A stretch of DNA of 64,000 bases. It comes from a virus. Under the pieces are notes generated by a model, which saw nothing but the letters and a program-made list of their open reading frames with translations, was not told the DNA's origin and searched no databases. The stretch covers positions 1 to 64,000 of the IMG/VR virus record IMGVR_UViG_3300022833_000005, one strand, 5' to 3'. This document shows, piece by piece, positions 1 to 3,127 of this stretch. Made by a program: the position numbers and the translations under genes. Position 1 is the first letter of the stretch. Every line of letters starts with the position of its first letter.

Positions 1-1
1 T

Positions 2-364
2 TTATCTTGATATTTCTATTATACTTTCAGGGTATTCTTTACAAGCATTCAAATATTTCTCTACAAATGGAACAAAATGTTCATACATTCCCCACCCGTT
101 AGAGCTATTGAATTTCTCAAAATGTTCAGGTCTAGCTTTTAAATCAGCTAATCCTATTTCAAGTAGTTCAATAATATCACTTGCTTTCTCCTTGGCTATT
201 TCTTCAGGTCTCCATAATGCTTTATAAATACCTGCTTCTGCTGCCATACTACCTAAATTATGGGTAATGTTAGCATCATAAACTTCTTCATCATCTCTAA
301 TGTGAGTTTTACCTTCATCATAACTAATCCATCTTGGTCTTGTTAAATATACATCTAAACTCAT
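2..364 (-). CDS. Conserved phage hypothetical protein
   Basis: 120 aa ORF, start overlaps upstream stop; MSLDVYL...NITHNL...LWRPEE...NGWG pattern recalled from phage proteins. Confidence 0.75.
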   Translation of the reverse strand: MSLDVYLTRPRWISYDEGKTHIRDDEEVYDANITHNLGSMAAEAGIYKALWRPEEIAKEKASDIIELLEIGLADLKARPEHFEKFNSSNGWGMYEHFVPFVEKYLNACKEYPESIIEISR

Positions 365-1014
365 ATCTCTAAAATGTTTCCGTTACTACTTAATCTACCA
401 AACTTACCATCAGTTACTACAGAACCATTACTAAAAATAGTATCTTGTCTTGATAACTTTACAGTACCAGCATTGATTATATCATCATTATTATGAATAT
501 GTCCAAAGCATACCAGTTTTAAGTTAGGTAGGTTTAGTACTCTTTTCTTTAAAGCATTACATCCACAAAATTCTAATTCATGGTTTCTACTATAAGATAA
601 ATCCAAGATTCCTTTTGGTGGACCGTGCACCACTACAATATCAGTATCATCAGGGATAGTTTGCCACACTTTATCTAATTTAAATCTTTGTTTCATAAAA
701 GACCAATTGCCAAAAGAAGGTGTATGAGGACTTCCCCATATTTTCAATCCATTTATCTCCACACTTTCATTCTCTAAGTATATAATATTATATGCCTCAA
801 AGTCATCTTTAGTTACTAATTTAGACTCAATACTTGAATCATGATTACCAGCTACAAATATCTTATGCTCAATAGGTAGTGTTTTAAACCAATGTATGAA
901 GTCTCTTACTTCAGGTTCATTAGTATAAGGAGCTCTAGGGTTAGAACAGTCACCACTAAAGATGACCATATCTATTCCTTCAGGTATTTCTAATAATTTG
1001 TGATATGTGTGAGT
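361..1014 (-). CDS. Calcineurin-like metallophosphoesterase, main body (N-terminal DxH motif interrupted)
   Basis: Motifs SGD, AGNHD, VHGPP, FGHIH; the frame begins ...THTYH and lacks the Asp of DxH, which lies in other frames (1014-1082 and 1790-1825). Confidence 0.85.
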   Translation of the reverse strand, partial: THTYHKLLEIPEGIDMVIFSGDCSNPRAPYTNEPEVRDFIHWFKTLPIEHKIFVAGNHDSSIESKLVTKDDFEAYNIIYLENESVEINGLKIWGSPHTPSFGNWSFMKQRFKLDKVWQTIPDDTDIVVVHGPPKGILDLSYSRNHELEFCGCNALKKRVLNLPNLKLVCFGHIHNNDDIINAGTVKLSRQDTIFSNGSVVTDGKFGRLSSNGNILEI

Positions 1015-1082
1015 TACGTATCCGAGAAATGCCAAACACGAAGCTTAGCTTTTCCCGGAGTAGTTGTTTTTATATTTTTCAT
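1014..1082 (-). CDS. Second, insert-borne N-terminus of the metallophosphoesterase (MKNIKTTTPGKAKLRVWHFSDT*)
   Basis: ATG at 1082; ends TGG CAT TTC TCG GAT ACG TAA, and the last A of TAA begins ACT CAC ACA TAT CAC of the main frame. Confidence 0.65.
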   Translation of the reverse strand: MKNIKTTTPGKAKLRVWHFSDT

Positions 1083-1770
1083 ATTCTTTTACTATTTGTT
1101 TATTAAATGACTCTGTATATCCTGGATAGTTTGTCTTAGGCATGTATTTATAGTTTTTGAACTCTTTTTTAAAGTTATTTTCTATATCATACGCTTCTCT
1201 TCCTGGTATTTTTATATTGTTAATAATTTTATATTTATAATTAAATTTATGTAATTGACTAAATCTTCTACTTATTTCAAACTTTGTTAACCCTACTTTA
1301 AAAAAAGACTCATTATCATTATAAATATTTATTAAATAAAAATTAACGACACTATTTAAATATAGATTAAATACTCTGTCCTTGCTAAATCCACATTTTT
1401 TTGATTTTGAAATATTTGATTTATTTATATCAATACAGGTTATTTTAGAAACATCATGACCTTGAAGAAGGTCATACAATACAGCATGATATGTAAACCC
1501 TTTGTGTTTTATTATAGATTTACCCTTTATTCCGCCATACTTTATAAGAGTATATTTTTCTTTTAAATTATTTAATTTAATTTGCATATATTCTACTTTA
1601 TTTACAGCAGACTCTATTCCAATTTTAAAATTTAATGCTCTATATATATTATTTTTACTATGTAAAATATTATTTTCATCATAAAAATATAATATAGAAT
1701 AATTATTAATAAAATTTACAACTCTATATTTAGGATGTTTTTTATAAAACTCTATAATTTTTTCATTCAT
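1045..1770 (-). CDS. Putative free-standing homing endonuclease, GIY-YIG superfamily (T5orf172/MUG113-like C-terminal domain)
   Basis: FYLI...FFKVGLT...RRF...E...GYTESF pattern; very AT-rich and Lys-rich; sits inside a conserved gene. Confidence 0.7.
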   Translation of the reverse strand: MNEKIIEFYKKHPKYRVVNFINNYSILYFYDENNILHSKNNIYRALNFKIGIESAVNKVEYMQIKLNNLKEKYTLIKYGGIKGKSIIKHKGFTYHAVLYDLLQGHDVSKITCIDINKSNISKSKKCGFSKDRVFNLYLNSVVNFYLINIYNDNESFFKVGLTKFEISRRFSQLHKFNYKYKIINNIKIPGREAYDIENNFKKEFKNYKYMPKTNYPGYTESFNKQIVKEYEKYKNNYSGKS

Positions 1771-1774
1771 AGGT

Positions 1775-1782
1775 CAAATATA
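1775..1782 (-). promoter_or_regulatory. Bacteroidota-type -7 promoter element (TATATTTG) directly before the endonuclease ATG
   Basis: Matches TAnnTTTG; ends 4 nt before the start codon. Confidence 0.5.
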
Positions 1783-1789
1783 CTAATAT

Positions 1790-1825
1790 TTAATTAATAG
1801 TATCCCCAATGTGCCATATTTTCAT
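1790..1825 (-). pseudogene. Original N-terminal fragment of the metallophosphoesterase (MKIWHIGDT-IN*)
   Basis: ATG AAA ATA TGG CAC ATT GGG GAT ACT, then insertion sequence and TAA. Confidence 0.75.
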
Positions 1826-1923
1826 AAGTTTATTTATTTTATTTTTAATACGTATAAAGCAGATAATTCTTTATATCTGCTCAGAGAGTTTTAATCTCAT
1901 TATGTTACTATGAAAGGTAATTT

Positions 1924-2019
1924 TTATTTGTTATTTTTTACAGAAATAATATACCCTATATAGATTATTCCACCTATTATTAATGCTGATGTTATTATTC
2001 CACCTATTATTATTTTCAT
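1924..2019 (-). CDS. 31-aa hydrophobic membrane peptide
   Basis: MKIIIGGIITSALIIGGIIYIGYIISVKNNK; preceded by the array junction motif. Confidence 0.55.
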   Translation of the reverse strand: MKIIIGGIITSALIIGGIIYIGYIISVKNNK

Positions 2020-2024
2020 AATTT

Positions 2025-2273
2025 CTATTTGTTTAATGTTATTTTCACTTGTAGTTTATTCAATTTATCAAGTATCTTATTAATTTGATATGTTGAAGCA
2101 TTACTATCTTCAACTAAATACTCTATTTCTTCTATTAATTTTTGCATTCTATCTTTATTAATACCTACTAGTGTATATGAATTTAAATCTCCTTCGTGAT
2201 ATCCATCTGTATATCCATCCCTATATCCCTTTTTCTGTTCTTCACTAATTACTTCATTGTTTTTTGTTTTCAT
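2025..2273 (-). CDS. Hypothetical protein (GYxDG repeats, coiled C-terminus)
   Basis: 82 aa ORF bounded by direct repeats. Confidence 0.65.
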   Translation of the reverse strand: MKTKNNEVISEEQKKGYRDGYTDGYHEGDLNSYTLVGINKDRMQKLIEEIEYLVEDSNASTYQINKILDKLNKLQVKITLNK

Positions 2274-2342
2274 AATTTATATTTGTTTAATGTTAATATT
2301 TGTCTTCCTACGTCAGTCATTTGCCAACGCTTTTTTTACTTT

Positions 2343-2468
2343 AGCCAACAATGTATAAAATTTATGTACTATATGCTTTTAAGTATAAAATCAACTAATT
2401 GCATCGTTTTATATGTTACAACGTATAATCTATTATCAGTACACAAACCTTATACAAATACGTTGTAA
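2343..2468. repeat. attC-like imperfect inverted repeat
   Basis: AGCCAAC-AA-TGTATAAAATTTATGTACT ... AGTACACAAACCTTATACA-AATAC-GTTGTAA. Confidence 0.5.
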
Positions 2469-2699
2469 GTTATGGTGTTTTATCTATCCAACCATTACCC
2501 TCACAGCATCTACATAGTCCTCTAAAACTATCAGTATATTTTTCGCCACAACTAACAACACCGTTTAAAGAAGATTGCTTGTCCGCGTATTCTTGCATAA
2601 TTCTGCCCTCTACTTCATATTTAAACTTTTTGCTAATTCCATTCTTTTTTGCCTGTAAAAACTTTCTGCTTCTTTACTCATTTTTTTTATTTTAATTAA

Positions 2700-2837
2700 T
2701 TATACTGAAAACATTAATTTTTTAATATTTTCTATTATAATTTCATTCCCACTTAGGCACTCTGATAAAATTTCATTCGGAGTTCTATTTGTTAAAGTTG
2801 CGTAAGTTTCGACTGCTAATTTCATTGTAGTTTTCAT
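2700..2837 (-). CDS. 45-aa hypothetical protein (MKTTMKLAVETYATL...)
   Basis: Translated by hand; start lies in the junction motif. Confidence 0.55.
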   Translation of the reverse strand: MKTTMKLAVETYATLTNRTPNEILSECLSGNEIIIENIKKLMFSV

Positions 2838-2842
2838 AATTT

Positions 2843-3127
2843 CTATTTTCTTTTAGGTGGTGTTGTAGTGTTATCTACATTAGGTTGTTGTACGCCTATA
2901 TTAATTGTTTGTTTTAAATCCTTCTTTTTAGGTTTAATTAATCTTAATCTTTTAGGGTATGCTGTAACTATATACTTCCCACTCATTACACATCTCAATT
3001 CTATCAAGAATATGAAACCATCAAAGATTATATCTGTAACGACTACCCCCACTTTATTATAATTTATAGGCTCTATGTAGTTAAACCTTTTTCCAATCCT
3101 AATCTTAAAATTTGTTATTTTATTCAT
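2843..3127 (-). CDS. Hypothetical protein
   Basis: 94 aa ORF; start and stop both lie within junction motifs. Confidence 0.6.
   Translation of the reverse strand: MNKITNFKIRIGKRFNYIEPINYNKVGVVVTDIIFDGFIFLIELRCVMSGKYIVTAYPKRLRLIKPKKKDLKQTINIGVQQPNVDNTTTPPKRK

Follow-up and report, generated by a model that had tools for sequence, protein, structure and literature searches.

A 64,000-nucleotide stretch of viral DNA (hereafter, the window), which is the first 64 kb of the 107,936-bp IMG/VR viral contig IMGVR_UViG_3300022833_000005, carries a metallophosphoesterase (MPE) gene broken by an insert with an endonuclease gene. The locus is carried by six salt-lake metagenome runs. Comparison of this locus with its relatives makes it quite probable that decoding of the MPE gene involves a short, programmed translational hop (a 'stop-hop') within a mobile endonuclease cassette. 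The insert supplies the gene with a replacement N-terminus that ends in a Thr codon directly followed by a stop codon; a ribosome stalled there would leave this Thr codon and land on a second one, placed immediately ahead of the enzyme body.

Anatomy of the invaded gene

The locus lies on the minus strand and consists of the following elements:

1799-1825, minus strand: remnant of the old N-terminus, MKIWHIGDT (ATG AAA ATA TGG CAC ATT GGG GAT ACT), running straight into ATT AAT TAA (1798-1790)
1012-1798, minus strand: insert of 787 nt with the endonuclease gene, the new N-terminus, the hairpin and the 5-nt gap
1045-1770, minus strand: endonuclease open reading frame (ORF) of 241 aa, with a T5orf172 domain at residues 145-213
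1017-1082, minus strand: replacement N-terminal ORF MKNIKTTTPGKAKLRVWHFSDT of 22 codons, whose last two codons are Asp (1022-1020) and the take-off Thr ACG (1019-1017)
1021-1059, minus strand: RNA hairpin of 16 bp, from minimum free energy (MFE) folding and a shuffle test
1012-1016, minus strand: coding gap UAACU of 5 nt, with the stop codon UAA (1016-1014) followed by CT (1013-1012); the landing Thr codon ACU is 1014-1012
361-1011, minus strand: MPE body of 216 codons plus stop, opening at the motif I His codon CAC (1011-1009), followed by ACA TAT CAC

The design of the stump matches intact alleles, such as MKIWHISDT/HTYH in locus L003 (here and below, a slash marks the junction). An earlier note on this DNA, made from the letters alone, had described the start MKIWHIGDT (1825-1799) as cut from HTYH by a 787-bp insert, and its coordinates proved right to the base; the insert ends are ambiguous by 3 nt, with ACT present at both junctions. 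The second N-terminus that it had read, ending in GAT ACG TAA CT CAC, is indeed found at 1082-1009. The MPE body matches Pfam Metallophos (PF00149, E 4e-12), aligning only from profile position 24 on, and retains the GD, GNHD, HGPPKG and GHIH motifs. Its D-x-H motif arises only when the N-terminal ORF is joined to the body by the hop (SDT + HTYH). The TTG-started ORF at 1035-361 opens MAFLGYVTH and, as had been pointed out, lacks the catalytic Asp of motif I.

With its last 12 codons and its stop, the endonuclease ORF overlaps both the new MPE start and the hairpin's 5′ arm. Outside this ORF the insert has only ~28 nt and ~33 nt, in agreement with the earlier view that flanks of ~30 nt leave no room for an intron core. 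A group I intron was rejected on other grounds as well: an Rfam search of positions 1-3000 (E <= 10) gave three unrelated weak matches only and no intron or other family, no choice of splice sites ending in G restores D-T-H, and gapped alleles occur without any insert.

The 5-nt gap was found to be real. The junction is bridged, with no differences, by unitigs from two further salt-lake runs (X4, records 11 and 13; X5, record 18). An identical junction is present in an independent 57-kb contig (L010/L043) whose downstream protein is just 69% identical to the window's; the replacement N-termini of the two are nearly identical, there is no endonuclease upstream in L010/L043, and the homology between these contigs and the window starts only ~8 nt ahead of the new ATG. 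The independent bridging unitigs, together with 36 other cassettes of like design (see below), rule out the assembly error that the earlier note had allowed for.

Runs X3 and X4 contain contigs with an intact allele that equal the window up to 1014 and then continue as the reverse complement of ..ATGAAAATATGGCACATAAGTGAT, i.e. ..MKIWHISD(T). These runs contain a near-identical phage with an intact, endonuclease-free gene (window 973-1014; two G>A differences, at 940 and 961). The salt-lake population is polymorphic for the element, with empty and invaded alleles coexisting. Contig cover of 1044-1900 was missing in four runs, and no weight was given to this.

Recurrence of the cassette and rules of the gap

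A homology search returned 24 loci with a readable N-terminal junction. The gene is intact in 22 of them, and two (L010 and L025, with proteins 69% and 53% identical to the window's) carry the window's 5 nt behind D-T. A further 80 homologues comprised 78 intact ones, one with TAACC, and one whose match does not start at the His codon. A pattern search that left the hairpin free yielded five MPE genes with TAACT after D-T, and a hairpin is present in 5/5. Relatives include both the junction seen in the window and empty alleles, the two things for which the earlier note had proposed a search. Overall, viral and metagenome contigs gave 37 distinct cassettes, in three MPE subfamilies:

Subfamily A: WHISDT/HTYH, ~216 aa
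Subfamily B: FFTSDT/HFGH.NI..C.RPF, ~180-195 aa
Subfamily C: VWFTSDT/HYNHKNI, ~200 aa

A pattern leaving 1-12 nt free between ACN and CAY revealed the gaps TAACT, TAACC, TGACG, TGACA, TAGACC and TAGTGAACT in MPE matches; TGACT and TAACA were added by a narrower pattern in metagenome contigs, bringing the total to eight gap types. All eight begin with a stop codon of the incoming frame and end with ACN immediately before CAY (His). Both the take-off and the landing codon are Thr ACN in 37/37 cassettes, often with different third bases (ACG and ACU in the window), and the A site at take-off holds UAA, UGA or UAG in every case, including the searches that left the gap free. The incoming frame has a start codon and the family-consensus N-terminus (WHISDT or FFTSDT) in all alleles. 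Conversely, none of the start codons ATG, GTG and TTG precedes the His codon in the downstream frame of five alleles (L045, L046, L040, L196 and L158), which rules out an internal start in that frame.

Two of the gaps, TAGACC (6 nt) and TAGTGAACT (9 nt, with two stop codons), are in frame. For these a frameshift is no explanation, and readthrough would lengthen the invariant D-x-H. A single mechanism would fit all eight gaps, namely a peptidyl-tRNA(Thr) that quits ACN at the stop codon and re-pairs on the next ACN. The hop from Thr ACG to Thr ACU over UAA, suggested for the window by the earlier note, is the only reading that fits the comparative sequence data, with its eight gaps of which two are in frame.

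The enzyme body bears the marks of purifying selection. A full-length downstream frame (169-226 aa) was found in 29/29 cassettes with a complete 3′ end, and all catalytic motifs are retained in those family-A alleles that were aligned. For the window MPE body (361-1011), where the earlier note had looked to dN/dS for a check, the value against the nearest intact relative is 0.10. The downstream frame gave 0.09-0.23 over gapped-intact and gapped-gapped pairs versus 0.14 for one intact-intact pair, these pairwise values including time that preceded the arrival of the cassette. The stronger argument for selection is that the cassettes are much diverged and yet have kept the stop codon, the landing ACN and the pairing of the stem.

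The cassette, in the sense of new start and gap, was also found without any endonuclease (L043, L045, L095, L141, L147 and L196). Many gapped alleles adjoin ordinary genes instead, for example those for a polynucleotide kinase or a methylase, and so the unit of start, hairpin and gap persists without the endonuclease. These endonuclease-free cassettes go beyond what had been noticed in the window, as do the conserved hairpin ending at the Asp codon and the frequent inequality of the two Thr codons at the third base.

Among cultured phages, the MPE gene has its nearest relatives in the Flavobacterium elemo phages, where the gene is intact (..VIWHISDTHTYH..). Blastn of GenBank phages with the cassette gave a single partial match, to the gene body, in an uncultured record. 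The sole pattern match in a bacterial genome, in Zhouia amylolytica, was rejected as a chance match in an unrelated ORF with no hairpin.

The hairpin and the proposed decoding of the gap

The hairpin of the window has an MFE of -21.9 kcal/mol (z -5.0; 0/200 shuffles as stable). Its lower stem, UCCGGGAAA paired with UUUCUCGGA, includes one G.U pair, and the Asp codon contributes its GA as the 3′ end, 1 nt ahead of the take-off codon. Such a hairpin is present in all gapped alleles and in none of the 78 intact ones. In a comparison of MFE for the 70 nt that end with the Asp codon, the mean was -21.5 kcal/mol in 20 gapped alleles (weakest -17.2) versus -5.3 +/- 3.2 in 78 distinct intact alleles. 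The consensus 3′ arm, ..YCUCGGA(Y), coincides with the Ser and Asp codons, the 5′ arm reads (R)UCCGRGR.., and the stem ends 0-1 nt before the take-off codon. In 18/18 distinct hairpins the lower-stem pairs 0-6 are canonical. Covariation is seen between the closing pair and the Asp codon's synonymous third base (G-C in ten, with GAC; A-U in three, with GAU), and pair 6 is altered on both sides, being A-U in six (subfamily A) and G-C in 11 (subfamilies B and C). The G.U pairs indicate that the folding molecule is the sense RNA and not DNA. The upper stems are unrelated in sequence and vary in size from a 5-nt loop to ~40 nt. The natural variants include a stem of 10 bp, in subfamily B. An intrinsic terminator was rejected: the window hairpin was not called as such and has no T run.

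We propose the following course of decoding. Translation would start from the new ATG (1082), reading MKNIK...WHFSDT, and would stall when the P site has peptidyl-tRNA(Thr) paired to ACG (1019-1017), the A site the stop codon UAA (followed by C) and the E site the Asp codon. At the stall, the 3′ arm of the lower stem (UUUCUCGGA) would still be within the mRNA exit channel, the upper stem having already re-formed outside. The GC-rich lower stem (CCGRG/CUCGG) may then zip behind the ribosome, drawing the mRNA forward by a few nt and breaking the codon-anticodon pairing. The tRNA would drop ACG and re-pair 5 nt on with ACU (1014-1012); decoding of His CAC would come next and would restore the metal-binding motif S-D-T-H-T-Y-H. 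The expected junction peptide of the hop product is VWHFSDTHTYHK.

Several points weigh against this scheme. In the window, ACG and ACU mismatch at the third base, so that re-pairing would depend on two base pairs, unless one tRNA(Thr) serves both codons; the phage codes for no tRNA of its own (ARAGORN found none in the window or in the entire 108-kb genome). Some alleles have their start codon enclosed by the hairpin, an arrangement that would impede initiation and hints that the hairpin may have another or an additional role, such as initiation control. The endonuclease of the window is without a ~45-aa Cys/His segment (C..HG...GRGCP.C), likely a zinc module, that is found in its homologues in L136, L213 and L046, and may be a crippled, inactive copy. 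Most of the later cassettes came from patterns that fix CTCGGA, and some also parts of the gap, which biases the counts; both homology searches (24 loci and 80 homologues) and the hairpin-free pattern search are free of this bias. Gene conversion can spread cassettes, and their shared design may be in part descent. None of the runs that carry the locus is recorded as RNA. The window's own allele looks freshly invaded, judging by its undecayed stump and the near-identical intact alleles in the lake, and its intact frame alone is therefore no proof of function. Finally, L148 (IMGVR_UViG_3300000405_000031) shares the window's N-terminus, hairpin and TAACT and has an extra base ~18 nt past the gap (minus strand, about 8428 in reverse-complement coordinates), which returns the enzyme body to the incoming frame, behind the stop codon; decay of the allele, or else an error of sequencing, is the probable explanation.

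The last two points bear on the possibility of a dead gene, which we consider unlikely. On this view, the cassette would simply have broken a dispensable phosphoesterase, no full-length enzyme would be made, and the hairpin would serve the endonuclease mRNA (its 3′-end stability or regulation). A recent invasion means that the open frame of the window need not reflect selection, L148 shows that decay does occur, and the endonuclease ORF, in several loci, runs at its 3′ end up to the start of the hairpin or overlaps with it. However, the hairpin is still kept in many gapped alleles that have no endonuclease (the loci listed above), the frames of all the complete cassettes are full-length, dN/dS is in the range already given, every one of the eight gap sequences is built as 'stop first, ACN last', and the hairpins have diverged with compensatory changes. 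A dead gene would impose none of these constraints and is disfavoured on this account. The window allele itself says little on the matter; it is its relatives that support the interpretation advanced in the earlier note, that of a non-splicing mobile element which replaces the N-terminus and relies on recoding.

Removal of the gap at the RNA level we regard as very unlikely. The hairpin, which is strong and ends 3-4 nt before the gap, might make RNA polymerase jump, so that a 3′ AC re-pairs on the next AC (AC repeats do flank the gap), or might direct cleavage and ligation, in either case giving a gap-free mRNA. Such a process has no need for an in-frame stop codon where the gap begins, yet one is present in 8/8 gap types. 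There is neither a T run nor a slippery run, and Rfam gave no ribozyme or intron match. Moreover, re-pairing over 2 nt is far below that of known transcriptional realignment.

The least probable alternative, to which we attach very little credence, is some other decoding of the 5-nt gaps, either a -1 or +2 frameshift near the stop codon (giving ..SDTVTH.. or ..SDTTH..) or the TTG start at 1035 (MAFLGYVTH.., without the motif I Asp): a 5-nt gap does equal a -1 or +2 change of frame, and the TTG-started ORF exists, L032 even having ATG at the same place, but there is no slippery heptamer, re-pairing of the P-site tRNA at -1 or +2 is not possible, a start codon in that frame is absent altogether from five alleles, the in-frame gaps of 6 and 9 nt would need a separate explanation, and the resulting proteins would either upset the D-x-H spacing, which is invariant, or be without the Asp present in every intact homologue.

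Two further observations concern the hairpin. In alleles with a 9-codon N-terminus (L032 3005-3065, L045 1400-1458 and L143 139-196), the MPE start lies in the loop or the upper stem; there, initiation and hopping would be coupled to one structure, or to translation of the upstream ORF. The intact locus L067 (2240-2540) has ~70 nt in common with the gapped L032 (2790-3095), the start codon and the hairpin's 5′ arm (AGTCCGAGAGAAGCC) among them. Its junction is normal (AGC GAT ACA CAC), with no 3′ arm and no gap. From its sequence, L067 looks like an allele that lost the gap by recombination within the loop, or like a precursor state.

Endonuclease genes, mobility and known systems

The GIY-YIG-like ORF that had been noticed in the insert matches Pfam T5orf172 (PF10544, GIY-YIG clan) with 23.9 bits, above the cut-off of 20, and phrog_681 'endonuclease' with E 1.6e-8. 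A structural model of the protein (pLDDT 68) had no Foldseek match in the PDB at E <= 0.001; for its C-terminal part (residues 131-241) the best VIA-align rows are GIY-YIG nucleases, with weak scores (HIGLE, Z 4.8; Slx1, 4.5; I-TevI, 3.0). Homologues 28-34% identical to it lie directly upstream of gapped MPE genes in L136, L213, L046, L243 and L247. Using local tblastn and Pfam, we found, in ~20 gapped loci, same-strand endonuclease-type ORFs whose ends lie 25-60 nt ahead of the Asp codon, while local tblastn found no such ORF upstream of the 78 intact alleles. These ORFs are distributed as follows:

T5orf172 upstream: the window, L136/L247, L213/L252, L046, L243
LAGLIDADG upstream: L040/L244, L242, L245, L246, L149, L158; a remnant in L142
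NUMOD3-bearing ORF with an HNH-like DHI..N motif (our own reading of the sequence): L145, L231, L239/L251
Members of the NUMOD3 ORF family, ~310 aa: L145 9769-10707; L231 10370-11314; L239 527-1450

Proteins of the NUMOD3 ORF family have a Cys-rich N-terminus, the NUMOD3 motif and a C-terminal DHIF..G..N..L.H.DN resembling HNH. Pfam gives NUMOD3 alone for them, and in PHROGs they belong to a family of unknown function. L032 retains a 36-aa C-terminal endonuclease remnant.

A second, independent invasion, of a different host gene, is seen in L136, where the stump MKILHISDTHS, closed by a stop codon, is followed by an endonuclease gene (product only 28% identical to the window's) and then by a new start with hairpin and TAACC. 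The position of the gap is that of the breakpoint of the old allele: after ACT in the window and 7 nt further in L136. This is consistent with a cut at the DT/H coding site and with a gap that protects its carrier. We suggest that gap, hairpin and new start form a mobile cassette that travels together with a free-standing gene for a homing endonuclease, which in the window is of the T5orf172 type. Intact alleles are presumably cleaved by this enzyme at the DT/H coding site; repair would copy in the endonuclease gene together with the gapped N-terminus, the old N-terminus remaining as a stump. The gap would interrupt the target site and so protect the carrier, as in T4 mobA/gene 60, where protection from the endonuclease by the gap has been shown for the MobA/gene 60 insert (10.1101/2022.08.31.505936). 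Taken together, we think it likely that natural, widespread and selected stop-hops of 5-9 nt, pulled by a hairpin from Thr to Thr, exist in phages, and that at least two, probably three, unrelated homing endonuclease families use the mini-cassette as an immunity mark inside a catalytic motif, without an intron or intein.

Among the closest known systems is T4 gene 60, where a 50-nt bypass lies within the MobA homing-endonuclease element (Manning & Atkins 10.1101/2022.08.31.505936; Wills et al. 10.1101/2024.12.09.627546) and mRNA pairing at the ribosome exit has been proposed to drive forward bypassing (10.1101/2024.12.09.627546; 10.1101/2022.08.31.505936). In both systems the stop codon directly follows the take-off codon and a landing codon of the same meaning immediately precedes the codon at which decoding resumes; the proposed forward driver is an mRNA stem lying 5′ of the take-off codon; the gap travels with a free-standing homing endonuclease gene, at the expected cut site; and the host gene is left in pieces (in the MPE gene, a 9-codon stump). 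The differences are also considerable. The MPE gap is 5-9 nt long versus 50 in gene 60, and the MPE cassette lacks a stem-loop that includes the take-off codon, a Shine-Dalgarno-like site in the gap and a long nascent-peptide signal; some alleles would hop at codon 9, with N-terminal peptides of only 9 aa (L032, L045). Unlike in gene 60, the MPE hairpin is wholly 5′ of the take-off codon and abuts it, and the take-off and landing codons need not be identical. The host gene codes for a metallophosphoesterase and not a topoisomerase, the endonucleases are T5orf172, LAGLIDADG and HNH-like ORFs, and there is no sequence homology. Thus, the MPE cassette would work like gene 60 but is outside the gene 60 family.

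Synthetic stop-hops, with matched codons around a stop codon, have been described (PMC5009743). They are alike in that the P-site tRNA leaves its codon at a slow stop codon and re-pairs on the next cognate one, and L196 (ACG UAG ACC) has exactly their layout. They are, however, artificial and inefficient, whereas the MPE layout is natural, conserved, paired with a hairpin and, in the window, out of frame (+5). The same 2016 review states that shorter counterparts of gene 60 had long been presumed and that no natural in-frame stop-hopping was known (PMC5009743), and a 2022 preprint states that no similar bypassing had been reported in other phages (10.1101/2022.08.31.505936). According to that preprint, the byps of Magnusiomyces capitatus mitochondria are likewise short mobile coding inserts neutralised by bypassing between matching codons; as described there, they differ in being 27-55 nt long, GC-cluster-like and mitochondrial, in using an unused sense codon and in having no link to an endonuclease (10.1101/2022.08.31.505936). 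T4-like seg/mob endonucleases and endonuclease-split phage genes share with the MPE cassette an endonuclease beside or inside its target, the lack of an intron or intein, and spread by break repair with co-conversion. In those cases immunity comes from point differences, or the gene yields two polypeptides, while the MPE carrier has an insertion within its reading frame that needs recoding and an N-terminus replaced outright. We found no published description of the present stop-hop in open-access papers and bioRxiv.

Programmed bypassing in phages has so far been one system, T4 gene 60 and its homologues. If the proposed decoding is true, the MPE cassette would be a minimal natural bypass made of a ~45-nt hairpin, a Thr codon, a stop codon and a second Thr codon, with no long peptide signal. 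Its dozens of natural variants amount to a mutational series in gap length, stop identity, codon pairs and stem sequence, and make it testable whether re-folding of mRNA at the ribosome exit powers forward bypassing. The cassette would also represent a third way, beside introns and inteins, for a homing endonuclease to reside inside an essential motif. Gene callers will label such genes truncated or pseudogenes.

A genome-wide scan for more sites with a hairpin and a stop-hop was not frame-aware, and its 41 matches were uninformative. The endonuclease ORF of the window contains a terminator-like stem (1455-1476, minus strand) of 9 pairs with a T-rich tail, one of two in the region 300-2400, where shuffled sequences gave 0.2.

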